DNA from: Candidatus Woesearchaeota archaeon
GTDB taxonomy: Archaea > Nanobdellota > Nanobdellia > Pacearchaeales > GW2011-AR1
NCBI GenBank assembly: GCA_964388875.1
Contig: CAYMCA010000005.1
Coordinates: 1 to 33,771, forward strand
Length of the DNA: 33,771 bases
Direction of reading: 5' to 3'
The notes beneath the pieces were generated by a model. The model did no database searches. It had not been told where the DNA came from and saw only the letters and a program-made list of their open reading frames with translations. Made by a program: the position numbers and the translations under genes. Shown piece after piece: positions 6,267 to 33,771 of the stretch (positions are counted from its first letter, which is position 1; the number at the start of each line of letters is the position of its first letter).

Positions 6267-6345
6267 CTTTAAGTTAGAATAAAAGGATTTTTAAAAATTT
6301 AGTTTCTGAAGAATATATTTAAAAAGATATTCGGTATAAAAAACT

Positions 6346-6612
6346 ATGCAAATATCGCAGAAAAAGAGGGATAAAATAGCAGAGCAGATTCTTAGCTTGC
6401 TTTACCATAGCTTTCCAAGGCAGCTTTTCACATCAGGAGTTTCAGATGAAATTGCCCGAGATGAGGAATTCACCCTTAAATTGCTAAAGGAGCTTGAAAA
6501 GAAGAATCTTGTAGCATCAGTTAAAAAGAATCCCCAAGGCAAAATCTATTCCAAAAGAACAAAATGGCGCTTAAGCAACCAAGCTCATGAAATATACAGG
6601 CAGCATCAGTAG
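6346..6612 (+). CDS. Small (88 aa) probable winged-helix DNA-binding protein
   Basis: ATG start. The pattern ...EIARDEEFTLKLLKELEKKNLVASVKKNPQGKIYSKRTKWRL is typical of small archaeal wHTH proteins. This is pattern recognition only. Confidence 0.5.
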   Translation: MQISQKKRDKIAEQILSLLYHSFPRQLFTSGVSDEIARDEEFTLKLLKELEKKNLVASVKKNPQGKIYSKRTKWRLSNQAHEIYRQHQ

Positions 6613-6675
6613 TCAATTGCAATACTGGATAAACTAAAACATCTTTCTTGATATAAGAATATTTTTAAATTCGCT

Positions 6676-16369: not shown

Positions 16370-16989
16370 AAAAAGAGGAGAAAACCATCAAGGCAATAAT
16401 ATTTGATTTAGGAAGTGTTTGCCTTCATATAGACTGGTTCAAAATAAATGAAGAGGTAATGAAGAGATTTGGTGTTAGCACATTAGTAAAGTCTTCTGGC
16501 AACCAAAATTTAATAAAAACTTATAATGAAGCTTTAGAAGGAAAGAAAGAGACAAGCAAATTTTTTAAAGAGTTAAATAATTACAAAGATAATACAAGTA
16601 AGTTAATAACTTTTTATAAATTCTTATATTCAAAATATAAGAAGCAAAATAAAGAGATTTTTAATTTAATCAAAAATTTAAGAAGAAGCCTAAAGATTTT
16701 TTGCCTTACAGATACAAACACACTTCATCTAGAAACACACAAAGAGCAGGGTATTACAGATAAATTTGATGAAGTTTTTACATCTTTTGAATTAGGGAGC
16801 AGAAAAGAAGACAGAAACACATTTATTAAAGTCTTGAATAAAACACAATTTAAGCCACAAGAAATAATATTTATTGATGATAATGAAAGAAACATTGAGA
16901 ATGCTAAATCCTTGGGAATTAATGCTATAAAATATGAAAGTTATGAAAAGCTTATCAAAGACCTAAACAAATTAGGGGTGAAAATTTAA
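16366..16989 (+). CDS. HAD-superfamily hydrolase, tandem paralog
   Basis: IIFDLGSV, CLTDT and IFIDDNERNIENAKSLG are present. It overlaps the upstream paralog in ATGA. Both proteins start MKKEEK and end LGVKI. Confidence 0.75.
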   Translation: MKKEEKTIKAIIFDLGSVCLHIDWFKINEEVMKRFGVSTLVKSSGNQNLIKTYNEALEGKKETSKFFKELNNYKDNTSKLITFYKFLYSKYKKQNKEIFNLIKNLRRSLKIFCLTDTNTLHLETHKEQGITDKFDEVFTSFELGSRKEDRNTFIKVLNKTQFKPQEIIFIDDNERNIENAKSLGINAIKYESYEKLIKDLNKLGVKI

Positions 16990-16990
16990 A

Positions 16991-17869
16991 ATGGATAAGC
17001 CAGACTTCCTCAAGAAGCTTGAAACAGAGCTGAAAATATCCCAGAATTCTGCATACACAATCCGCAATTACATTGATTCAAACAGGGCTATGATTGATTT
17101 TGCAAAAAAAGAGCCCGAGCAGATTGCAGAGGATGATGTCAAGTCATTCATGGCGGAAAAGCTGGCAGGCAAGGCAAGCTCATCTGTGATTTTGTTTTTG
17201 TCTGCGCTGAAATATGCCTATTCAAACATCCTGAAAAAAGACATAACAGCAGGCATAAAAAGGCCCAGAAAGGAAAAGAGGATTCCAAATGTGCTGACAA
17301 AAGAAGAGGTTAAAAAATTGCTTGATGCCTGCAAAAACAAGAAAAGCAGGCTTATGCTCAGCCTCATGTATGCTGCCGGCTTCAGGGTAAGCGAGCTTGT
17401 AAGCCTTAAACACTCTGACTTAAGCTTTGATGAAAAGACAGGGCATATCCGGCAGGCCAAGGGTAAGAAAGACAGGATTTTTAATATCCCCAATTTTTTA
17501 ATGGACTCACTGAAAGAGCAGGCAGAAAGGCAAAAGCAGTCAAGCCAGGAATTTTTATTCTCAGGAAACAAAGGCAGGCTCACAGAAAGGAACATCCAAA
17601 AGATAGTGAAAAATACAGCTAAAAGGGCAGGCATACAAAAGGATGTGCATCCACATACACTTCGCCATTCTTTTGCCACGCATCTTCTTGAATCTGGGAC
17701 AGACATAAGATTTATACAGGCCCTGCTGGGCCACAGCTCAATTTCCACGACAGAGATTTACACACATGTTTCATCAGGGGCGCTTAAGAAGATTGCCTCG
17801 CCGATTGATGCGCTGATGGCTGGAGAGAATTATAATGCAGAAGTTAAAGAGAAAAGAGAGGAATCCTAA
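16991..17869 (+). CDS. xerA: Tyrosine recombinase XerA (archaeal XerC/D homolog)
   Basis: An N-terminal SAM-like core-binding domain is present. The catalytic region carries AAGFRVSEL, HPHTLRHSFATHLLESGTDIRFIQALLGHSSISTTEIYTHV (R..HxxR..H..Y). Confidence 0.9.
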   Translation: MDKPDFLKKLETELKISQNSAYTIRNYIDSNRAMIDFAKKEPEQIAEDDVKSFMAEKLAGKASSSVILFLSALKYAYSNILKKDITAGIKRPRKEKRIPNVLTKEEVKKLLDACKNKKSRLMLSLMYAAGFRVSELVSLKHSDLSFDEKTGHIRQAKGKKDRIFNIPNFLMDSLKEQAERQKQSSQEFLFSGNKGRLTERNIQKIVKNTAKRAGIQKDVHPHTLRHSFATHLLESGTDIRFIQALLGHSSISTTEIYTHVSSGALKKIASPIDALMAGENYNAEVKEKREES

Positions 17870-19072: not shown

Positions 19073-19651
19073 ATGCCAAAAGAGGTTTTGTATGCTGGCT
19101 TGGACGAATCCAACCATCACAACGGCAATGAGCATCCAGAGGTATGTGTTGCTGTTTTCTCAACAATAAAGGAAGACAGGGAATGCCGCGTGTTCAACAG
19201 CAGCAAGGATTATGCCTGGAAGAATGAGATGCTCAAGGACGCAAGAAGGGATTACAGGTTTCTCCTGCTGAACTGCAATGACATTTATCCAAAAAGGCAC
19301 AATAATCTTCCAATTGTGGCAAAAAGCCTTGTCATGCCTGTTTTGAAATCAGAATCATACAAGTATGAAAGGCTTGAGATATACATAGACGGCGTTGTTA
19401 CGCGGGATGACAAAGACAGAATAATCCAAGGCCTTCCGCTAAATCTTGATGTTTATGTTCAGGGTTTTATCAAATACTTTAAGCAGGATAGAAACCCACG
19501 TGACAGGAAGATTGAAGGCAAGGAAAATTCTAAAAGATTCAAGCAGCCTCCAATCTTGAAGCTCGCAGACATCATAGCGCATGAGCTTTTTTCAAGTTAT
19601 ACGCTAGAAAAGCTGTCGCAGCATGAAAAGAGAGTGCCTTTTTTGCTATAG
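19073..19651 (+). CDS. Hypothetical protein, DUF3800-like
   Basis: The N-terminal YAGLDESNH and C-terminal LKLADIIAHELF resemble the DESG and (L/I)ADxxA motifs of DUF3800. This is pattern recognition only. Confidence 0.5.
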   Translation: MPKEVLYAGLDESNHHNGNEHPEVCVAVFSTIKEDRECRVFNSSKDYAWKNEMLKDARRDYRFLLLNCNDIYPKRHNNLPIVAKSLVMPVLKSESYKYERLEIYIDGVVTRDDKDRIIQGLPLNLDVYVQGFIKYFKQDRNPRDRKIEGKENSKRFKQPPILKLADIIAHELFSSYTLEKLSQHEKRVPFLL

Positions 19652-19654
19652 CTG

Positions 19655-20026
19655 ATGCGAAAACTTAAACATAACCTATTTAAAGAAGAAAGTCTTTATA
19701 CAAATATGGGATTTGACTTTTCAAAACTAAATCCATTCAAAAAGAAAACGCTGGAATCAAGGGCTGCATCTGCCAAAACTCCGCTTGTTATAAGCTATAG
19801 CTGGAATATTGCTGACAAGGAGCACCCGCATTGCGTCCGCGAGTGCGCGCATCTTGAAAAAAATCATGCATTTAAAACACCAAAGGAGCTTGTTATTTAT
19901 GTCCTTCAAAAGTATGGGGGCAGCTTTGAGATAAGTGAGTATGAGCATATCCCCCCTCTTATTATAACAGAATTCCAGTACAAGGCCCTTTTTGATAATT
20001 ACGCTAAGCAGTTCGCAAAGAAATAA
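19655..20026 (+). CDS. Hypothetical protein (123 aa), coupled to 19073..19651
   Basis: Its ATG lies 3 nt after the upstream TAG. I recognise no family. Confidence 0.5.
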   Translation: MRKLKHNLFKEESLYTNMGFDFSKLNPFKKKTLESRAASAKTPLVISYSWNIADKEHPHCVRECAHLEKNHAFKTPKELVIYVLQKYGGSFEISEYEHIPPLIITEFQYKALFDNYAKQFAKK

Positions 20027-20054
20027 CAACCACAAAAACAATAAAATTATGCCC

Positions 20055-20507
20055 TTATCTGTAAGACTTCTGCCTCTTCTTTCTTGCCTTGCCAGAGCTT
20101 GGCTTTCTCATCTCTTTTCTTCTCGTGTCTGCAATAAGCATATTTCTGTCATACTCAAGGAAAGCCTTTCTGAGGGCGTCTGACTTGGTGAACTGGACAA
20201 GCGCCTTGGAAATTGCAAGCCTTGATGCCTCTATCTGGCTCTCAATGCCGCCGCCCCTTACATTTACAGCAATGTCAAAATTAAAGTTTCCAAGCACCTC
20301 TTTGGCAAGCATTACAGGCTCTTCTATCATAAGCATTCTCAGATAGCTCAGGTTCTTGTATGGGCTTTTGTTTATTGTAACAATGCCTGTTCCCAGCTTT
20401 ATTGACGCCCTGGCTATTGCTGTCTTTTTCTTTCCGCTTACGACAATTATGTCCCCGTATTTTACAGCTTTGATTTCAGCCTTCTTTGATTTTTTTGCCT
20501 CTGCCAT
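20055..20507 (-). CDS. rps9: 30S ribosomal protein S9 (uS9)
   Basis: GKKKTAIARA, VRGGGIESQIEASRLAISKAL and the C-terminal ...KKRQKSYR are typical of uS9. Confidence 0.95.
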   Translation of the reverse strand: MAEAKKSKKAEIKAVKYGDIIVVSGKKKTAIARASIKLGTGIVTINKSPYKNLSYLRMLMIEEPVMLAKEVLGNFNFDIAVNVRGGGIESQIEASRLAISKALVQFTKSDALRKAFLEYDRNMLIADTRRKEMRKPSSGKARKKRQKSYR

Positions 20508-21457: not shown

Positions 21458-21556
21458 TGCTCTTGCTGTGAAGTTCCTTGCCTAACTGAACAATCTTTAT
21501 GTTCTCTTGCTGCGAAAATGGAAACAATATTTATCTGCTCTTGCTGTGAAGTTCCT
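21458..21556. repeat. Perfect 21-bp direct repeat TGCTCTTGCTGTGAAGTTCCT (two copies) with a partial third copy between them
   Basis: Copies lie at 21458-21478 and 21536-21556, with a partial CTCTTGCTGCGAA at 21504-21516. They sit between the tRNA 3' end and the L18e start. Confidence 0.8.
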
Positions 21557-21646
21557 CACAGAGGTTGTGGACTTTCTCGCTATGGCAGATGAATATGCGG
21601 GAGGCGAGCGCATTCATTTTGCTAATATTATCTATCAAGAAATGAA

Positions 21647-21730
21647 TGCGGGAGGTAGGAATCGAACCTACGCAGGCACTAAGCCATTAGCTCCTTAGGC
21701 TAACCCGTTTGGCCGCTCCGGCACCCCCGC
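21647..21730 (-). tRNA. Class II tRNA, tRNA-Leu; by hand fold the anticodon loop reads CUAAGGA (anticodon AAG)
   Basis: Minus-strand sequence: GCGGGGGTGCCGGAGCGGCCAAACGGGTTAGCCTAAGGAGCTAATGGCTTAGTGCCTGCGTAGGTTCGATTCCTACCTCCCGCA. It has a 7-bp acceptor stem with one G-U, U8, A14 and the GG of the D loop. The anticodon stem is TTAGC/GCTAA, the variable arm is long, and the T arm is GTAGG-TTCGATT-CCTAC. The discriminator is A73 and no CCA is encoded. Confidence 0.8.
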
Positions 21731-25941: not shown

Positions 25942-26352
25942 TTTTATTTAATCTTTTTGATATTTTTAAATATATGTGTTTTGAGGGGGGCTTTGCACAT
26001 CTCCTTAATTATTTTTCCTTTACTAACAAACTTTAAAATGTGCCATGATTTATAACTTTTATGAAAATAAAAGAGGGGAAGTATTAGCAGAAGGAGGGGT
26101 ACAAATTGTACATACCCTTCCACTGGAAGCAGAAGTAATAAAAGGTGAGATTAAATTAAAGAAAAAACAAATAAAATAATTTTATTAATCAATATTCAAA
26201 AATTTCTTGCAAATCATTATTAAGATTGGCTTGATTTTATTTTTGTAATTATTATATTTTTCATTATCATAACTTGCAATTGCTAGGTTTTGGATTTTTT
26301 CCTTGCTCTCAAAAAATTCATTGCTATCTAACAGATTTAATTTTTATGTTTT

Positions 26353-26381
26353 AAAAACTGCTACTTTGTGGCAGTTTTTTT
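26353..26381. terminator. A-run / hairpin / T-run (AAAAACTGCTAC-TTT-GTGGCAGTTTTTTT)
   Basis: An 8-bp stem with one G-U is flanked by A5 and T7 in the long non-coding region 25942-26773. Confidence 0.4.
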
Positions 26382-26536: not shown

Positions 26537-26665
26537 ATGAACATAAAACCGGGAATAGCCAATCAGCCATAAAAACTCAAAATCCAATCCCTCCGAGATT
26601 AAGACAGGGGGCAATATGCTTAAGAGAAGCTTAAATGGGGGAAGTTTTTGGTTGAGGGGATGGGG
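26537..26665 (+). repeat. Family B intergenic repeat, copy 1 (5' extension + core + tail)
   Basis: ATGAACATAAAACCGGGAATAGCCAATCAGCCATAAAAACTCAAAATCCAATCCCTCCGAGATTAAGACAGGGGGCAATATGCTTAAGAGAAGCTTAAATGGGGGAAGTTTTTGGTTGAGGGGATGGGG. Near-identical copies lie at 27974 and 29541. Confidence 0.85.
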
Positions 26666-26740
26666 AGCTTTAAAAGTACTCAAATTAAAAGTTTACGCTA
26701 CCAAAGTCTAATAAACCATAATACTATACGATACCATAGT

Positions 26741-26773: not shown

Positions 26774-27937
26774 ATGGAAATAAACTTAGAAGCAGAGCTA
26801 TACAAACAAAATCCCTGGTGGGAAAGAAAATTTGAAGATGAAAGCATTCCTAGAGAGGCATATCTTAAAGAGATAGATAAAAACTTGAGTCATAAGGAAA
26901 TAATATTCTTGATAGGTCTTAGAAGAATTGGAAAAACAACTATAATGAAGCAGTTTATTAAAAGACTGCTTAAAAAAGTCAGTCCAGAAAATATTTTTTT
27001 TATAAATCTTGATAGCTTTACATTATCTAACCTGTCAATTCACGGATTGATTGAAGAATACAGAAAAATCCATAAAAAATCTTCCAAAGGCTTATTTTAT
27101 CTTTTCCTGGACGAAGTAACTTCGAGAGAAAATTTCGAGCAAGAGCTAAAGAGTCTGTATGATAATGAAAACATTAAAATTATATGCTCTTCCTCAATTG
27201 CAACCATGATGAGAGACAAGAAAGCATCATTAACAGGGAGAACAAGAACAATTGAGGTTATGCCTTTAACATTCCAAGAATTCTTAATTTTTAAAAAGGC
27301 AAAAATTGGCAAGGCAGACAGGTCCGCTTTGGAAGGTTATTTTAGAGATTATATGAGAGTTGGCGGAATTCCCTATTATGTCCTAACAGAAGATAAAGAA
27401 TACTTAAATGAGCTTGTTCAGGGGATAATTTACAAGGACATTATTGCATATCATAAAATAACTGGTGAAAAAGCCATAAAAGACATGTTTGTTCTTTTAT
27501 GCAGGAGAGTTGGAAAACCGACTAGTTACAATAAATTAGCCCAAATTTTAAAGATATCTGTTGATAGTGTTAAAAGATATGTAGGATATTTTGAAAAAGC
27601 TTATTTGTTTTATACGCTAGATAAGTATGCCAAATCTTATAATGAAAAAGTTACTTCTCCTAAAAAAGTTTATATTGGAGATATTGGAATTAAAAATCTT
27701 ATTACTGAAAATAAAGATTTGGGGGCAAGTTATGAAAACCTTGTCTTTTTGAAGATAAAAAATCTAAATCCGGCTTATTATCTCCAGGATGCGGCAGAAA
27801 TAGATTTTATTACAAAAGATATGCTAATTGAAGCAAAGTTTAACCGGGAAATGGATGAAAAACAAAAAGAGTTATTTAAAAAAATTAAGATTAAGAAAAA
27901 AATTATAGCTAATGGCATTGATTTCTTTATGAATTAA
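26774..27937 (+). CDS. AAA+ ATPase of the COG1373 type (AAA_14 + DUF4143)
   Basis: The N-terminal NPWWE, Walker A GLRRIGKTT and Walker B FLDEV are present. The C-terminal ...YENLVFLKI....EIDFI... region is restriction-endonuclease-like (DUF4143). Confidence 0.85.
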   Translation: MEINLEAELYKQNPWWERKFEDESIPREAYLKEIDKNLSHKEIIFLIGLRRIGKTTIMKQFIKRLLKKVSPENIFFINLDSFTLSNLSIHGLIEEYRKIHKKSSKGLFYLFLDEVTSRENFEQELKSLYDNENIKIICSSSIATMMRDKKASLTGRTRTIEVMPLTFQEFLIFKKAKIGKADRSALEGYFRDYMRVGGIPYYVLTEDKEYLNELVQGIIYKDIIAYHKITGEKAIKDMFVLLCRRVGKPTSYNKLAQILKISVDSVKRYVGYFEKAYLFYTLDKYAKSYNEKVTSPKKVYIGDIGIKNLITENKDLGASYENLVFLKIKNLNPAYYLQDAAEIDFITKDMLIEAKFNREMDEKQKELFKKIKIKKKIIANGIDFFMN

Positions 27938-27973: not shown

Positions 27974-28079
27974 ATGAACATAAAACCGGGAATAACCAAT
28001 CAGCCATAAAAACACAAAATCCAATCCCTCCGAAATCAAGGCAGGGGCAATATCTTTAAGAGAAGTCTAAATGGGGGAA
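27974..28079 (+). repeat. Family B intergenic repeat, copy 2 (5' extension + core)
   Basis: ATGAACATAAAACCGGGAATAACCAATCAGCCATAAAAACACAAAATCCAATCCCTCCGAAATCAAGGCAGGGGCAATATCTTTAAGAGAAGTCTAAATGGGGGAA. Confidence 0.85.
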
Positions 28080-28093
28080 TTTTTGAGATTTAT

Positions 28094-28873
28094 TTAGACT
28101 TTTTTAGCTTTTGCTTTCTTTTCAGAATCTTTGATTTCTTTAAGCTTAAAGTATTCTGCAAGAAAAGAAATGACTTGTTGAAAGCTTATTTCTTCTCGAG
28201 TTATTGCTGCTAAATCTTTCTTCCAAATGCGAAATACCTTGTTTGTATTTTTAAAAACTGCTTTTATATCAAATTTTTTCCCTGTTGATTCTAATTTTCT
28301 TTTTATAATCTCTAAATTAATTGAGTTTCCAGATTTTATCAGATTGTATAAATCCAGATAGTCTCTTGGCTTGTATCTTTCAATTGTTGCTCTCAGCTTC
28401 TCAGCAAACATCTCTTCCTTGTTCAAGCAGGATATATAAAATGAAGGGAATTTATCTTTGTAAAAATGGTCAACAAGGTACTTTTCCGGCTTGAGAAGTG
28501 GCTTTGCTCTTGCAGTTAAGTCAATAAATATTCTGCCTGGCTCGTGAAATAGCCTGTAATGGGCTGCCAATCTTAAAAATCTCTCAACATCTTTTTCTGG
28601 GCTAAGCTTATCAAAAATAGTTCCATTTAGTTTTTCTTTTATCTCAGCTTTAACTTCTTCAATATCCCTTGTTAATGTAAAATCCAAGTCTTCTGACAAG
28701 CGGGTATGATTAAGAAATATTTTATTTATTGCAGTTCCTCCCTTAAATAAAATTCCTTTCACATCCTTCAAAAGAAACAACAATTGGGTGACCAAATAAT
28801 CTTTTTCAATTATCAGCATTCCAAACTTCTCTCTGCCCGAGATTATTCTTAACTCATCTAATGTTATATCCAT
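28094..28873 (-). CDS. AbiEii/AbiGii-family nucleotidyltransferase toxin
   Basis: FKGGTAINKIFL..TRLSEDLDF is the family signature GGTAL...R.SxDxDF. The ORF is 259 aa. Confidence 0.8.
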   Translation of the reverse strand: MDITLDELRIISGREKFGMLIIEKDYLVTQLLFLLKDVKGILFKGGTAINKIFLNHTRLSEDLDFTLTRDIEEVKAEIKEKLNGTIFDKLSPEKDVERFLRLAAHYRLFHEPGRIFIDLTARAKPLLKPEKYLVDHFYKDKFPSFYISCLNKEEMFAEKLRATIERYKPRDYLDLYNLIKSGNSINLEIIKRKLESTGKKFDIKAVFKNTNKVFRIWKKDLAAITREEISFQQVISFLAEYFKLKEIKDSEKKAKAKKV

Positions 28874-29439
28874 TTTTTGCTTTCCTCTTTTGTGGCTATG
28901 ATAAACTTATGGCCATATACCTCTCTTTCTATTGATTTTGGAATGTCCTGTTTTTTATGCTTTTTAAAATAAAATACTGAATTAAAAATCTGGATCTTTT
29001 TATGCTTTTTTGTATTCCAGACTTCATAAACAAGGGGAACCTGGTCAATCAGCTTCCAATAGCTTGCAGCTGCTTTTCCTACAATTGAATAATTTTTTGA
29101 ATTCATGATTTCATCAATTAGTATAAACGGGTGCTCTGACCAGTTTCCGCTTACAGCTTTTATAGGAACAAGAAAGTACTTGCTTTTATTAAGCTTGATA
29201 ATCCTGGCTTTTCTCTTAAGCCTGTAGATATAAACTTTTCTTTCATTTGCATTTTTAAAAAAAGGCATTGCATCGTTAGTTGTGAAAAAGTATTTTCCCT
29301 TCAGCTCCAGGCTGGAAATCAGAGCGAGCTCTTTTTCAGAAAGCCCTTTTCTGATAGTTTTTTCCTTTTTCAGGGTTTTGGATATTTTTTGCGCTTTCAT
29401 CTTTTCATTCTTTTTATTCCTCCCATAGTTTCTCCACAT
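28864..29439 (-). CDS. AbiEi-like antitoxin (wHTH plus C-terminal domain)
   Basis: It overlaps the toxin start by 10 nt. ELALISSLELKGKYFFTTNDAMPFF....VYIYRLKRKARIIKLNKSKYFLVP is wHTH-like. The start could be ATG 29439 or 29400. Confidence 0.65.
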   Translation of the reverse strand: MWRNYGRNKKNEKMKAQKISKTLKKEKTIRKGLSEKELALISSLELKGKYFFTTNDAMPFFKNANERKVYIYRLKRKARIIKLNKSKYFLVPIKAVSGNWSEHPFILIDEIMNSKNYSIVGKAAASYWKLIDQVPLVYEVWNTKKHKKIQIFNSVFYFKKHKKQDIPKSIEREVYGHKFIIATKEESKKWI

Positions 29440-29540: not shown

Positions 29541-29630
29541 TCAAAATCCAATCCCTCCGAAATCAAGACAGGGGGTAATATCTTTAAGAGAAGCCTAAAT
29601 GGGGGGAAGGTTTTGGTTGAGGGGGGAGGA
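29541..29630 (+). repeat. Family B intergenic repeat, copy 3 (core + tail), overlapping the 3' end of the HsdS-like ORF
   Basis: TCAAAATCCAATCCCTCCGAAATCAAGACAGGGGGTAATATCTTTAAGAGAAGCCTAAATGGGGGGAAGGTTTTGGTTGAGGGGGGAGG. It is preceded by hairpin TCGGGC (29507-12) / GCCCGA (29528-33), whose loop holds a GCATCCT..AAAACA box like the family A linker. Confidence 0.85.
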
Positions 29631-30105
29631 AGGAGGACGAGAGGTAGGGAAGAGGGATTTTTATTGAATTAAGTTGTTTAGAGGTAATCGCTTGAAATGT
29701 GCTTCCAACTCCTAAATTGGCAATAACCTTCTTATTTGAATTTAAAAAATAATAAAGATAAAATAAATTTACTTTGTTGGTAGGTTTAATTGAAGTTAAC
29801 CCTCTACCAATACAACATTTAATATTGCAAATATTAACATCTCCTACCGGAGCTCTAATAGAGATTAATATTGAATTTGAGTCTGCAAATTTTGAAGGTT
29901 TTGTTGTCCATTTTTTAATAATAGGATATTTATCAGTAAATTCAGCCTTCCCTTGAAAGAAAGGAGTTCCTTCTTCATTTTCATTATAAGAATTGCCTGG
30001 CGGAGATTGCCCCATTATAATTTCAAAATATTCTCCATTTCCCAATTCAACTTCTTGCCAGCCTTCAGGAAGTTTATTCTGTTTTTGTGTTATTTGTTGT
30101 TTCAT
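29584..30105 (-). CDS. Type I restriction HsdS-like single target-recognition domain, orphan and probably 3'-truncated
   Basis: LPEGWQEVELG..., SILISIRAPVGDVNI, IGRGLTSIKP, LFYLYYFL, GSTFQAITSKQLNSIKIPLP is a complete HsdS TRD. The conserved helical spacer expected after IPLP is replaced by YLSSSFLPPQPKPSPHLGFS, which is encoded by repeat B3. ATG 30105 lies 1 nt after the helicase stop (TAA-c-ATG), and the track start 30114 is TTG. Confidence 0.7.
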   Translation of the reverse strand: MKQQITQKQNKLPEGWQEVELGNGEYFEIIMGQSPPGNSYNENEEGTPFFQGKAEFTDKYPIIKKWTTKPSKFADSNSILISIRAPVGDVNICNIKCCIGRGLTSIKPTNKVNLFYLYYFLNSNKKVIANLGVGSTFQAITSKQLNSIKIPLPYLSSSFLPPQPKPSPHLGFS

Positions 30106-30106
30106 G

Positions 30107-31999
30107 TTATTCAATTATCTCGATAAAATGAGAAGGTTCGAGATTTCTCCATTCATGGTTAATAGAGTGTGTTATTGTTAAGAAATCTTTTGCTCTTGAA
30201 ACAGCAACATAAAACAGCCTTAACTCATCATCTTTCTTAACCTTGCTTAGTTTATCAAAATAAAAAGGTAGTATCTTTTCATTACATCCCGCTAAAAACA
30301 CATATTTCCATTCTAATCCTTTAGAGCTATGAATCGTGCTTAATATCACTTTTTCTTTATCTTTTTCTCTTTTTTCCATTTCAATTAAGCTATCTAAAAA
30401 AGCTTTTATTCCTTCAAGATCATAGTCATAACCTTTAAATAATTCTTTTAAAGTTTCTATATTCTCTTCTTTATCTTCTATTTTTTCAGGCTCATACGCA
30501 TATTTTTTTGAAATTAAATAGTGATAATCAAAGAATTTTAAAAAAGATTCAATTGGATTTTTATTGCTTCGTTTTATGAGCTCTTTAAGTTTAATAAGTT
30601 TTTTACTTATCTCATAATTAAACTTTAATTGTTCAGATTTATCTAAAGAATCTACAATTGAACACTTGTTCTTATCGGTAATTTCTTTAACTTTGTTTAT
30701 TTTTGCCTTGCCAATACCCCCAATTAAACTTGCGATTCTTTCAAATTCTATTGTAGTATTTGGGTTTATTTTAAGTCTTAGAAACGCAATAATATCTCTA
30801 ATTTCTTCTCTGTCAAGAAAACCTCTTGCTCTTGATAAATGGCATGGAATTTTATTTCTTCTAAATTTTCTTTCAATTTGTTTACCTAAATTATTTGTTC
30901 TAAACAAAACAGCAATATCTTCTACCTTTGTTTTATTCTTTAATAATCCCTTAATCTCTGAAACTAAAAAATCAGTTTCTTCATCAAAAGAATAAAACTC
31001 TTTTATTTGTATATCGCTTCCTTTATCTCTGGTGCAGTATAGCTTTTTATCAATTTTAAAGGCAAGTGATTTTATTATTTTATTTACAGCACTAATTATC
31101 TTTTCTGTTGACCTATAATTATCTTTCAGAGTAATTTTTTTATGTTTTTTATTAAACTTAAATATAAGGTCATTTGAGGATCCTCTCCAGGTATAAATAT
31201 TCTGGCAATCATCTCCGATAAGACAGAGATTATTGTTTTCTAATAAATCAAGTATTTTCATTTGAACAACACTTAGATCTTGTGCCTCATCAACCATTAT
31301 TACTTTAAATTTATCTGAATAATGCTTTCTTACATCTTCATTTTTACTTAGAAGATTATATGCCAATAGGAGAATGTCATCAAAATCAAGGGTATTAGAA
31401 TCCTTTAAAATTTTTTGATATTCTTTATATGCTGCTATAGAAAGTTTCTTTATTTTAGAACTTACTGAAACAACTTCCCCTTCTATCTCTTCTATAATCT
31501 CTCTTTGAGACTCATTCAAATCTAAATTGTCACTCAAAGATTCATGGCTTACCCCCGCATTTTTGAATCTGTTTATTCTGTCAATTAAATAAACAATATC
31601 TCCTGATTTTGGCTTTATACCTTTCTTCTCTAAAATTTTCCTGATTATTTTTTTCTTATCACTCTCTTCAGTTAGTAGCGTAAAATTTGGATTTAATCCT
31701 GCTTCATCATGATTTTCCCTTAAAATTCTAAGAAATAAAGCATGCATGGTCCCTATATAACCTGGCATCTTTTTTGTCCTTTTGCTTATCTTTTCTTTCA
31801 TATCTTTAGCAGCTTTATTAGTAAAAGTGGTCATCATTATTTCACTAGGGCTAAAACCATGTTTTTCGACAAGATTTATATACCTTTCAACAATAGCTGT
31901 AGTTTTTCCTGTTCCAGCACTCGCCAATATAAGCAAGTTTCCATTTAATGTGTTTACTGCATCAATTTGCTCTTTATTTAATTTTAGTGAATTTATCAT
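30107..31999 (-). CDS. UvrD/PcrA/Rep-like SF1 DNA helicase (630 aa)
   Basis: ASAGTGKTT (Walker A), TFTNKAAKDM, MVDEAQDLS, GDDCQNIYTWRGS, TIHSSKGLEWKYVFL and LFYVAVSRAKDFL are all present. Confidence 0.9.
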   Translation of the reverse strand: MINSLKLNKEQIDAVNTLNGNLLILASAGTGKTTAIVERYINLVEKHGFSPSEIMMTTFTNKAAKDMKEKISKRTKKMPGYIGTMHALFLRILRENHDEAGLNPNFTLLTEESDKKKIIRKILEKKGIKPKSGDIVYLIDRINRFKNAGVSHESLSDNLDLNESQREIIEEIEGEVVSVSSKIKKLSIAAYKEYQKILKDSNTLDFDDILLLAYNLLSKNEDVRKHYSDKFKVIMVDEAQDLSVVQMKILDLLENNNLCLIGDDCQNIYTWRGSSNDLIFKFNKKHKKITLKDNYRSTEKIISAVNKIIKSLAFKIDKKLYCTRDKGSDIQIKEFYSFDEETDFLVSEIKGLLKNKTKVEDIAVLFRTNNLGKQIERKFRRNKIPCHLSRARGFLDREEIRDIIAFLRLKINPNTTIEFERIASLIGGIGKAKINKVKEITDKNKCSIVDSLDKSEQLKFNYEISKKLIKLKELIKRSNKNPIESFLKFFDYHYLISKKYAYEPEKIEDKEENIETLKELFKGYDYDLEGIKAFLDSLIEMEKREKDKEKVILSTIHSSKGLEWKYVFLAGCNEKILPFYFDKLSKVKKDDELRLFYVAVSRAKDFLTITHSINHEWRNLEPSHFIEIIE

Positions 32000-32003
32000 A
32001 ATT

Positions 32004-33467
32004 TTACTTCACCTCAACAATAAATTTCCCCTCTTTAATTGATATAAATATCCCTTCATCTTTAAGATGATTTTTTAGATGTGATGAAGTTTTGAAAGAA
32101 TCTTGGTTTTCCTTAATATACTTCTTAATAGCATCTTTATTATAAACCTTTTTCAAAAATTTAAATAATATCACTATATCTGTCCAGTGTCCTCTAAGTA
32201 GTTCTTTTTTATTGTTAATAAATTTTAGTGTTTTTTGTTTGTCTATTTGTGATAATCTTTCTAATAAGGAGACATGTTCCTCAATTTTCTTCCAATCAAA
32301 ATTATCTTTTATAAATTCATAGTCATTTATTTGAGAAGATAAGTATGTAAGCTGTTTTTTGTTGTACTCTGTATTTTCATCTTGCAATAAAAGCTTTTTT
32401 GTAATTTCTTCATTTCTAAAATTATTTTTTATAAATAAATCTACAATATCTTTTAGCCTGTCAACTATATCCTGATTTTCCTCCACAGCAGTTTCAAACT
32501 GCTCAAAATTATTCACAATAGTATCAAAATCTTTCTCATATACTCCTACCATAAACAAAAGATTCTTATTTTTTAGAGATTCTGCAAGACCTTTAATAAA
32601 AGAAATCTTTTCTTCAATAAAATTGTATAAGATATGTTTGTTTGAATTATCTACATTCTTTTTTACTTCCAAAAGAGGGGGATTTTTTAGATTCAGAAGA
32701 AATTTAAGATATTCTTCTTTAGGAAAAGCTTTTTTAATCTTATCTTTAAATTCTTTAAAGGACTCTGCTTCATTAATTATCTCATCTCTGAGGGGCTCTC
32801 TTCTTATTATTTCATTTACTTTATTCTCTTGCAATGATTTTTTAACAATTAACTCTATTAGTTTTTCATTTAAATCAAATAATCCCGCATCATATTCTTC
32901 GTCTTCCCAATGTTCATAGTTCTCATTGTATTCATCACTTTCACAGATTTTGTCTGTAATTTCATCGTGATGAGTATCAATATAATCATGCAATTCTAAC
33001 AATTGTTCAAAAGAAAGCACAGGCAAAAGAGCTTCTGCTTCTTTAATTTTATCCGAAGAAATATTCTTTTTGAATGATTTTATAAAATCTTTTTTATTTG
33101 TGTTTTTTCTTATATTATGCTTAATTATCCAATCAGGATTATCCTGCAATTTTGATAATATCATTTCTTTAAGCTCATTACTGCTCATTTTATTGAGGCT
33201 TTTAATAAAATCTTCAGTATCCCAAAACTTACCCTTTTCATAAATTAAATAAAGAGCAACTGCATGTTTGCAGTTAGTTCCATATGGGCAGGAACAATCT
33301 CCATCAAGAGAATCTAAGTCTACCTCTGTTTTGTAAGTTGTAGAGCCTTCAACTTTTCCAAAAATAAAATTATTAATTTTTATACAATATTTAACAGAGT
33401 CTAAATATCCCTTTCCTCTTTCAATTACCTTTTCAGAATATTTATCTTCAATATCCATTTTTCCCAT
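32004..33467 (-). CDS. SWIM zinc-finger protein with a long acidic helical C-terminal region (487 aa)
   Basis: The N-terminal pattern RGKGYL...V......FGKVEGSTTYKTEV......CSCPYGTNCKHAVALYL matches the SWIM CxCxnCxH signature. The stop lies 4 nt before the helicase ATG. Confidence 0.8.
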   Translation of the reverse strand: MGKMDIEDKYSEKVIERGKGYLDSVKYCIKINNFIFGKVEGSTTYKTEVDLDSLDGDCSCPYGTNCKHAVALYLIYEKGKFWDTEDFIKSLNKMSSNELKEMILSKLQDNPDWIIKHNIRKNTNKKDFIKSFKKNISSDKIKEAEALLPVLSFEQLLELHDYIDTHHDEITDKICESDEYNENYEHWEDEEYDAGLFDLNEKLIELIVKKSLQENKVNEIIRREPLRDEIINEAESFKEFKDKIKKAFPKEEYLKFLLNLKNPPLLEVKKNVDNSNKHILYNFIEEKISFIKGLAESLKNKNLLFMVGVYEKDFDTIVNNFEQFETAVEENQDIVDRLKDIVDLFIKNNFRNEEITKKLLLQDENTEYNKKQLTYLSSQINDYEFIKDNFDWKKIEEHVSLLERLSQIDKQKTLKFINNKKELLRGHWTDIVILFKFLKKVYNKDAIKKYIKENQDSFKTSSHLKNHLKDEGIFISIKEGKFIVEVK

Positions 33468-33690
33468 CCTTTAAATCAAAATCATAAAATCCATCTTTTT
33501 GCCGTGGCTGTTTCATCATCTTCTTGTAATAATCAGGATAATTCCGCTTTATTCTTTCAAGCTTTATTTTTAGGTACCTGTTTTTGCATTTATCCGAGCA
33601 AAACAATAAAACCTTTTCATCCCTGAATTGGGGGGAGAGCCAGATTCCTGAATCAAATTCCTTATGGCAGGCTTTGCATTTTTCACCTAT
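33448..33690 (-). CDS. TRASH/FCS-like zinc-ribbon ORF lacking a canonical start codon
   Basis: Own translation: (I)GEKCKACHKEFDSGIWLSPQFRDEKVLLFCSDKCKNRYLKIKLERIKRNYPDYYKKMMKQPRQKDGFYDFDLKDGKNGY*. The C-x2-C-x22-C-x3-C pattern with FCS matches the TRASH pattern. The frame opens after TAA 33694-96, and the only early candidate start is ATA 33690, 5 nt after GGAGGT. It overlaps the SWIM start by 20 nt. Confidence 0.4.
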   Translation of the reverse strand: MGEKCKACHKEFDSGIWLSPQFRDEKVLLFCSDKCKNRYLKIKLERIKRNYPDYYKKMMKQPRQKDGFYDFDLKDGKNGY

Positions 33691-33771
33691 CCTTTACCTC
33701 CCAGCTTCCGCCTTTATCAGTGCCAATTCTTTTAAGCCTGCCAGATTCTTTAAGTCTTTTAATTATCTTTT
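33683..33771 (-). CDS. 3' end of a gene whose product ends in a wHTH-like tail (...KIIKRLKESGRLKRIGTDKGGSWEVKDR*); the N-terminus lies outside the window
   Basis: Own minus-strand translation, open to the window edge, with stop TGA at 33683-85. A G-x-x-KGG-x-WEV ending is common in C-terminal wHTH modules of ATPase/AlbA_2-type regulators. This is pattern recognition only. Confidence 0.4.
   Translation of the reverse strand, partial: KIIKRLKESGRLKRIGTDKGGSWEVKDR

Follow-up and report, generated by a model that had tools for sequence, protein, structure and literature searches.

The window analysed here is the whole of contig CAYMCA010000005.1 (33,771 nt; GenBank assembly GCA_964388875.1) of a Candidatus Woesearchaeota archaeon, and the subject of this study is the compact minus-strand cluster at its right-hand end, in which genes for a small zinc-ribbon protein, a SWIM zinc-finger protein, a UvrD-like helicase and an HsdS-type target-recognition domain (TRD) follow one another. 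We interpret this region, with a probability of roughly 0.55, as the decayed remnant of a type I restriction-modification (R-M) island of DPANN archaea, the SWIM and helicase genes being accessory or defence genes embedded in that island. In this island of a tiny archaeon, the UvrD-like helicase and the lineage-specific SWIM protein are recurrent guests, not members of a self-contained SWIM-helicase-TRD system. The latter had been proposed in a preliminary description of the window, made from the sequence alone.

The hsdS fragment and the genes beside it

The TRD gene was previously taken for a stand-alone specificity gene. We found it to be the 5' 40% of an hsdS gene. The hsdS-like open reading frame (ORF) extends over 29584-30114 (minus strand) from a TTG start, and the ATG at 30105 gives a product of 173 aa. 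In Pfam it showed a single Methylase_S domain (profile positions 1-139 of 168), in PADLOC it matched positions 3-152 of 554 of Specificity_I, and it aligned only with residues 16-164 of a 385-aa HsdS and residues 22-176 of a 426-aa HsdS. A full-length HsdS has two TRDs together with conserved helical regions at the centre and the C terminus; only TRD1 was found here. Immediately downstream of the codons for the conserved IKIPLP, the ORF runs into a repeat of about 100 nt, the third copy of which contributes the final 20 codons of the ORF and its stop codon. At the same place, an intact hsdS of 369 aa is present in L171 (L numbers denote loci of related archaea). The conserved helical regions of HsdS mediate assembly with HsdM; they are missing here, and the TRD fragment is most likely non-functional. 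It is a truncated relic of an ordinary hsdR/hsdS/hsdM system and gives the helicase no specificity, the role once suggested for it. No hsdM or hsdR was detected in the window by tblastn with HsdM and HsdR of L015, in agreement with the preliminary description; the contig stops at 33771, and either gene may lie beyond that point.

The helicase gene is complete. Both Pfam domains of the predicted superfamily 1A (SF1A) enzyme were matched over their full length (UvrD-helicase, E 5.9e-68; UvrD_C, E 9.9e-57), and Walker A, DEAQD and the later motifs were intact in the translation (ASAGTGKT, VDEAQD, GDDCQNIYTWRG, TIHSSKGLEW and YVAVSRAK), as expected from its earlier assignment to the UvrD/PcrA type. 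In PDB searches, PcrA, Rep and UvrD were matched with E values of 1e-73 to 1e-66. However, orthology to these proteins was not found with NCBIfam, in which the helicase scored 374 (PcrA), 360 and 320 bits against equivalog cut-offs of 911, 951 and 1144; it differs from them also in having no C-terminal extension and in that its close members are R-M-embedded. In DPANN archaea the family has more than 120 members with at least 52% identity, encoded on contigs of up to 409 kb. Values of dN/dS of 0.11-0.18 indicated purifying selection on the helicase.

Purifying selection was likewise found for the SWIM protein (dN/dS 0.12 against L006). In an AlphaFold model (AF2 pLDDT, predicted local distance difference test, 90.8), an N-terminal beta-sheet and the SWIM zinc finger are followed by an all-alpha solenoid of about 400 residues and a C-terminal beta hairpin. 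The SWIM finger stands as described; the 'long acidic helical tail' attributed to the protein is a confidently predicted alpha-solenoid with one short acidic disordered loop. The zinc signature CxCx5CxH (CSCPYGTNCKH) comprises C55, C57, C63 and H65 in the numbering of the 484-aa form, and these residues, conforming to CxCxnCxH, are invariant in 37 homologs. The family as a whole contains 75 homologs (34-100% identity), all of about 480 aa and all from DPANN archaea. Among 1.8 billion representatives there were about ten full-length clusters, and remoter matches covered only the first 110-280 residues.

No catalytic domain was found in the SWIM protein. It had no NCBIfam match, and neither it nor two other family members matched any PADLOC model at E<=1. 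A Foldseek search of the PDB returned nothing significant (generic TPR/HEAT solenoids only, E above 3e-3), and a viral structure library returned one giant-virus 'SWIM domain protein' with a low template-modelling score. Origin from a virus or provirus was rejected on finding no SWIM relative in IMG/VR, and origin from a Mutator-like element or other transposase was ruled out because the remainder of the protein is a solenoid without a DDE domain. In the literature we found no paper linking SWIM proteins to type I R-M or to DPANN archaea.

Upstream of the SWIM gene lies a conserved gene of the zf-FCS/TRASH-like family, to which the zinc-ribbon ORF had been correctly referred. The ORF was called at 33448-33606, and the gene really reaches 33693. 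Its homologs in L008, L010 and L015 are 51-60% identical and start with MKMSEKCK, that in L171 is 62% identical, and the Pfam zf-FCS match is weak. In the window, the ATG of the relatives is replaced with ATA (33687-33696, minus strand), an in-frame TAA is located five codons upstream of the first Cys, and no canonical start precedes the first CxxC. For the window gene, decay to a pseudogene and translation from a non-canonical start are both conceivable. The fifth ORF, of which only the tail is present, was correctly recognised as the end of a winged helix-turn-helix (wHTH) protein: its last residues, KIIKRLKESGRLKRIGTDKGGSWEVKDR, match the C-terminal signature (..KRIGPDKGGYWEV..) of a 445-aa family found in 9 related loci, members of which contain SLFN_AlbA_2, HATPase_c_4 and HTH_24 in Pfam.

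The ORF listing and direct reading of the DNA, which gave four complete ORFs and a fifth represented by its tail, all on the minus strand, confirmed all coordinates, overlaps and gaps exactly as previously described. The zinc-ribbon ORF and the beginning of the SWIM ORF have 20 nt in common, the stop of SWIM is separated from the helicase ATG by 4 nt, and 1 nt lies between the helicase TAA and the ATG of the TRD ORF. The shared function read from this packing does not follow: outside the region, 10 of 18 same-strand neighbour pairs are separated by 10 nt or less. Because tight spacing is the norm of this genome, it is weak evidence of shared function.

Table 1. Positions of genes and repeat copies in the island of the 33,771-nt window.
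Feature	Coordinates	Strand	Remarks
Repeat copy 1	26537-26666	+	Upstream of the COG1373 ATPase gene
COG1373-type AAA_14/DUF4143 ATPase	26774-27937	+	Neighbouring cassette; Pfam; PADLOC candidate PDC-S01, E 1.8e-77
Repeat copy 2	27974-28084	+	Between the COG1373 ATPase gene and abiEii
AbiEi/AbiEii toxin-antitoxin pair	28094-29439	-	Neighbouring cassette; AbiEi 28864-29439, AbiEii 28094-28873
Repeat copy 3	29541-29646	+	Supplies the 3' end of the truncated hsdS ORF
5' remnant of hsdS	29647-30114	-	First TRD only; residues 1-156, ending IKIPLP
SF1A helicase, UvrD/PcrA/Rep type	30107-31999	-	630 aa; all helicase motifs intact
SWIM protein	32004-33467	-	487 aa (484 aa from the second ATG); Pfam SWIM E 4e-6
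Small zf-FCS/TRASH-like zinc-ribbon protein	33448-33693	-	About 81 aa; overlaps the SWIM start
Schlafen-AlbA_2/HATPase_c_4/wHTH C-terminal tail	33683-33771	-	3' gene end, 28 codons + TGA; cut by the contig end

Related R-M loci and SWIM neighbourhoods

Close homologs of the window proteins all came from metagenome-assembled genomes (MAGs) of Nanoarchaeota, Pacearchaeota or Woesearchaeota, in accordance with a DPANN source; proteins identical to those of the window are not on record elsewhere. In the closest relative (L171-L173), uvrD is 96.6% identical in nucleotide sequence and its product 96% identical in amino acids. The genes there form the array hsdR(910) - 131 - 155 - 62 - SEC-C(595) - zf-FCS(90) - uvrD(630) - hsdS(369) - 213 - NYN - 109 - hsdM(495), with lengths in aa. 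The intact hsdS begins 2 nt after uvrD, which bears out the proposed link of the helicase to type I specificity genes. DNA similarity between the window and L171 covers uvrD and, more weakly, zf-FCS; it ends at the start of hsdS, and the TRDs differ. There is no SWIM gene in the L171-L173 locus. Comparison of the two loci indicates that the SWIM gene was precisely gained or lost between zf-FCS and uvrD.

In L174, whose UvrD is 69% identical to that of the window, the order is hsdR - 138 - uvrD - 273 - hsdS - 232 - AlbA_2/HATPase_c_4/HTH - hsdM. The same MAG carries a SWIM gene on another contig (L008), beside zf-FCS, AbiE and COG1373 genes. L015 contains both guests, in the Pfam-verified order hsdR-...-uvrD-SWIM-...-zf-FCS-...-hsdS(426)-...-SEC-C-...-hsdM. 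Altogether, embedding of guest genes in type I R-M loci was found in L012, L015, L100-L103, L119, L121, L147, L171 and L174: SWIM, uvrD, zf-FCS, NYN and AlbA_2 genes are interspersed among hsdR, hsdS and hsdM, with which they share the strand. In the window itself, the hsdS remnant is the only flanking hsd gene.

Some of these loci showed further features of their own. At L174:18797-19772, beside the type I R-M locus with its intact uvrD, uvrB appears to be split into fragments of 108 aa and 204 aa; nucleotide excision repair may be decaying there while the embedded helicase is retained. In L006, a SWIM-UvrD locus 89% identical to that of the window, a 295-aa protein with a staphylococcal-nuclease domain (SNase) is encoded at 809-1696, with 52 nt between its gene and the SWIM gene downstream. 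This protein, which the window lacks, may be a nuclease partner. The 595-aa SEC-C protein of L171 (4524-6311) is a fusion of modules that are separate genes in other loci: its N-terminal module of about 100 residues recurs in ORFs of L015 (218 aa) and L001 (242 aa), and the rest consists of a SEC-C-type body and a C-terminal SEC-C motif. The small genes of such islands therefore behave as shuffling and fusing modules.

To place the SWIM gene, we collected 158 SWIM loci from genome and metagenome collections and clustered the ORFs of 48 non-redundant loci with a full-length member. Among these 48, the most frequent neighbours were HsdS (14 loci), SEC-C proteins (13) and UvrD (10, at a median gap of 4 nt), followed by zf-FCS, AlbA_2/wHTH and UPF0158 proteins (9 each); HsdM, NYN proteins and an unnamed protein of about 120 aa, 'p130' (7 each); an SF2 ResIII/DEAD helicase (6); a YgjP-like peptidase (5) and HsdR (4). 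Nearly all recurrent neighbours were on the SWIM strand, including all 27 of the hsd genes. There were hsd genes in 15 loci, a helicase or translocase in 17, and one or the other in 24.

The association with UvrD was confined to one part of the family. UvrD was present in 10 of the 26 loci of the closer clade (clade A; at least 49% identity) and in none of the 22 loci of the other. In the closer clade the gene order was SWIM>uvrD, uvrD>SWIM or uvrD-YgjP-SWIM, and a helicase or translocase lay within two genes of SWIM in 9 of the 26 loci (UvrD in each case except one, HsdR). In the other clade, SWIM is followed by UPF0158, or by SEC-C and HTH_40, and then by an SF2 helicase. As regards the conserved SWIM-UvrD pairing predicted earlier, adjacency is thus recurrent, in varying order, whereas an obligate pairing is contradicted by the SWIM-less locus with the 96% identical UvrD.

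A sister family of SWIM proteins, of about 524 aa, matches the DPANN family over the first ~190 residues (hhalign probability 99.5). Its genes lie 57-70 nt downstream of hsdR in hsdR-SWIM-x-(DUF3644)-hsdS-hsdM loci of the Methanosarcinales type (L054, L146, L147, L160 and L162). HsdM of these loci is 66-67% identical to DPANN HsdM, which suggests that the whole R-M locus type moves between archaeal phyla.

These results showed that this R-M lineage regularly hosts the UvrD-like helicase, and that it frequently hosts the SWIM-solenoid protein as well, which is dispensable and tends to adjoin a DNA motor (UvrD, SF2 helicase or HsdR). The link between SWIM and the helicase is real but facultative.

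Neighbouring cassettes and the repeat element

The cluster occupies the most AT-rich part of the window, as had been judged by eye: the lowest GC content, 0.26-0.29, was found at 30-33.5 kb. To the left of the island, at about 20-25 kb, lies ordinary archaeal chromosome with S13-S4-S11-RpoD-tRNA-Leu-L13-S9 genes. The AbiE pair and the COG1373 ATPase reported next to the cluster were both verified with Pfam and PADLOC, and the setting is a variable, AT-rich defence island. AbiEii scored 8.6e-28 in Pfam and 1.8e-35 in PADLOC, AbiEi scored 1.6e-14 in PADLOC, and the two genes, which make up a full AbiEi + AbiEii pair, overlap by 10 nt.

Upstream of AbiEi genes in related islands, the palindromes AAAAGTGTCAC-TTTTT-GACACTTTTT and ACTGCTAC...GCAGT recur (L167:18445-18494 and 21541-21728; L106:4119-4417), as would be expected for AbiEi operators. 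A similar palindromic motif is present in the window at 26349-26379, away from the AbiE pair. The L167 island also contains segmental duplications that are 99% identical, of an HRDC gene and an AbiEii gene (6339-6638 / 19529-19828 and 16893-17192 / 19990-20289). Such identity points to very recent recombination or duplication in islands of this type.

The repeat that interrupts hsdS is present in three direct copies, which are 80-93% identical with a core of about 75 nt; none would be expected by chance. The COG1373/PDC-S01 and AbiE cassettes are flanked by these copies, one of which interrupts hsdS. No match was found in Rfam, and no copies were found in 169 related loci or in IMG/VR, where a single 18-mer match was due to chance. 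Five of six folds were no more stable than those of shuffled sequences; the plus strand of copy 3 was marginally more stable (z = -2.27), partly via a GC-rich hairpin outside the shared core. An integron attC site was rejected on the basis of the folds, the lack of an Rfam match and the presence of cassette genes in both orientations. The folds and the Rfam result, together with the lack of copies in the relatives' loci, also spoke against a miniature inverted-repeat transposable element or a known RNA. No integrase was found in a Pfam scan of 21 window ORFs from the island and the stretch with ribosomal-protein genes (the other large ORFs at 1-21 kb were outside the scan). The repeat may serve for recombination, may itself be a small mobile element, or may mark an assembly join.

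Known systems, rival readings and possible roles

Embedding in type I R-M loci has been published as a means of predicting defence genes (Payne et al., bioRxiv 10.1101/2024.01.29.577857), and the relatives of the window resemble type I R-M loci with guests, such as the PrrC/Rlo-type 'restriction-linked' genes and the candidates proposed from embedding. Two known embedded candidates are among the neighbours, namely PDC-S01 and an NYN protein matching the HEC-09 model of Payne et al. The present case differs from the known sets in that the SWIM-solenoid family has no PADLOC model, in that up to a dozen shuffled guests are present per archaeal locus, and in that the host R-M system is itself broken in the window. 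No PDC or HEC model matched the window SWIM protein; PDC-S62 and PADLOC DpdE matched only the SWIM module of the 524-aa sister family.

SWIM-associated SNF2 ATPases have been noted before (PMC5512222). In Bacilli, a SWIM protein is encoded beside an SNF2 ATPase gene, so that a DNA-motor gene lies next door, as in the window. The SWIM proteins of these SNF2_assoc/SNF2 pairs and DpdE of Dpd share an N-terminal beta + CxCxnCxH SWIM module with the window family. The similarity of the Bacilli protein (hhalign probability 96.8) extends over about 70 residues, and only the SWIM module is common; the 400-residue solenoid is unrelated. Unlike these pairs, the partner in the window is of SF1A UvrD type, not SNF2, and the pairing is facultative. 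No SNF2-family ATPase was found beside or fused with the window SWIM protein; SNF2 partners occurred only with distant bacterial SWIM proteins.

The helicase matched GajB of Gabija (GajA + GajB) in PADLOC at E values down to 1.4e-88, but its similarity to PcrA, Rep and UvrD was equal or better. No GajA, the OLD-family ATPase/TOPRIM nuclease, was detected among the seven island proteins scanned with PADLOC, and the neighbours of the helicase are SWIM and the hsdS remnant. Gabija was ruled out for want of GajA, the GajB match probably reflecting generic similarity within the UvrD superfamily. MADS gave only a generic S-subunit match, and Retron XIII and Dpd matched only the SWIM module of relatives. 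As the preliminary description had anticipated, no named system in PADLOC, NCBIfam or Pfam claims the set.

Several points weigh against our interpretation of the region as a decayed R-M island with embedded guests. The surveyed loci are metagenome fragments, often short and phylogenetically non-independent. Of the 31 SWIM loci flanked by 6 kb or more of sequence, 14 contained neither hsd genes nor a helicase; R-M is thus not a requirement for SWIM. On large contigs, UvrD homologs with 57-60% identity lie in ordinary metabolic neighbourhoods, and the helicase family may therefore also have a housekeeping role; another homolog, at 69% identity, lies in a SEC-C/DUF6398/AbiE island without hsd genes. 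Furthermore, the truncation of hsdS at a repeat could be an assembly join, and the mechanistic roles, the interactions among SWIM, UvrD and Hsd proteins and a nuclease partner in the window are all putative.

It is conceivable that SWIM and the helicase have no functional link and are independent passengers of a fast-shuffling island, adjacent through DPANN genome compaction and local recombination. Tight spacing as the genome norm, the wide differences in SWIM neighbours among loci, the precise presence or absence of SWIM between near-identical loci, and the duplications and repeats in the islands would all fit. We nevertheless consider this unlikely: the frequency of a motor within two genes of SWIM in clade A is far above chance for genomes of about 1000 genes, two other motor types (SF2 helicase and HsdR) recur beside SWIM relatives, and the co-orientation of hsd genes with SWIM is complete.

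A self-contained defence system of SWIM and UvrD (with or without the TRD), with the TRD supplying specificity and SWIM regulating or recruiting the helicase, appears quite improbable. Its adherents could point to SWIM-UvrD adjacency in 10 loci, kept through several changes of gene order, with direct neighbours overlapping or separated by a few nt (up to 38 nt, in L103); to the failure of named systems to match; to purifying selection on both genes despite the broken R-M system around them; and to the SNase gene just upstream of the pair in L006. However, the TRD is a truncated hsdS without the conserved helical regions and the second TRD, the 96% identical UvrD is found with an intact hsdS and no SWIM, and one MAG carries SWIM and UvrD on different contigs. 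UvrD is never a SWIM neighbour in the second clade, no effector nuclease is present in the window, and SWIM has already largely been seen to occur as often without UvrD as with it.

In eukaryotes, the SWIM protein Shu2/SWS1 belongs to a pathway that opposes Srs2, a helicase of the UvrD family. A housekeeping role in repair or recombination, with the helicase as a general UvrD/PcrA and SWIM as its Shu2/SWS1-like regulator, is very unlikely: the helicase is closest to PcrA/Rep/UvrD and its family is widespread in DPANN archaea, with some members in ordinary neighbourhoods, but the examined members at 53-75% and 96-100% identity are in hsd loci or defence islands and not with repair genes, uvrB appears fragmented in L174 while uvrD is kept inside the R-M locus, and SWIM varies in presence as accessory genes typically do.

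Returning to the R-M island with embedded guests, the co-directional array in intact relatives runs hsdR - small genes - zf-FCS - (SWIM) - uvrD-like helicase - hsdS - small genes - hsdM, the small genes before hsdM including NYN, AlbA_2/wHTH, SEC-C and others. In the window, hsdS would have been cut after the first TRD at the repeat, hsdM and hsdR are not present on the contig and the zf-FCS ATG would have been lost, with the SWIM-solenoid and helicase genes kept intact under purifying selection. Guilt by embedding suggests that the guests are accessory or defence genes. The helicase may act on DNA engaged or cut by the restriction complex, and may unwind the engaged DNA for degradation in organisms without RecBCD. 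By analogy with the presumed role of SWIM proteins for SNF2 ATPases, the SWIM protein is probably a non-catalytic zinc-finger/solenoid adaptor that docks a DNA motor, UvrD in this case, to DNA or to a partner protein. A broader proposal, which we regard as tentative and rather doubtful, is that the DPANN SWIM-solenoid proteins and the 524-aa sister of Methanosarcinales type form a hitherto unrecognised class of accessory subunits in an archaeal type I R-M lineage, zinc-finger/solenoid adaptors coupling interchangeable motors (HsdR, UvrD-like SF1 helicase or SF2 helicase) to restriction, and that the embedded UvrD is a post-cleavage helicase for cells without RecBCD.

That defence genes can be embedded in type I R-M loci is already known (bioRxiv 10.1101/2024.01.29.577857). 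The SWIM-solenoid family, its sister downstream of hsdR and UvrD as a regular guest of DPANN R-M loci were not found in PADLOC or in the literature searched. DPANN archaea reportedly possess few R-M and CRISPR systems and many compact or candidate ones (PMC12988326). Here, a type I R-M lineage carries up to a dozen co-oriented guests, including a UvrD-like helicase and a SWIM-solenoid family that is absent from current defence catalogues. The window also offers a caution, in that the 'SWIM + helicase + TRD' trio is a decayed fragment and not a minimal system. If the guests modulate or extend restriction, they would add a helicase-assisted layer to type I R-M, and would provide a first functional handle on stand-alone prokaryotic SWIM proteins.

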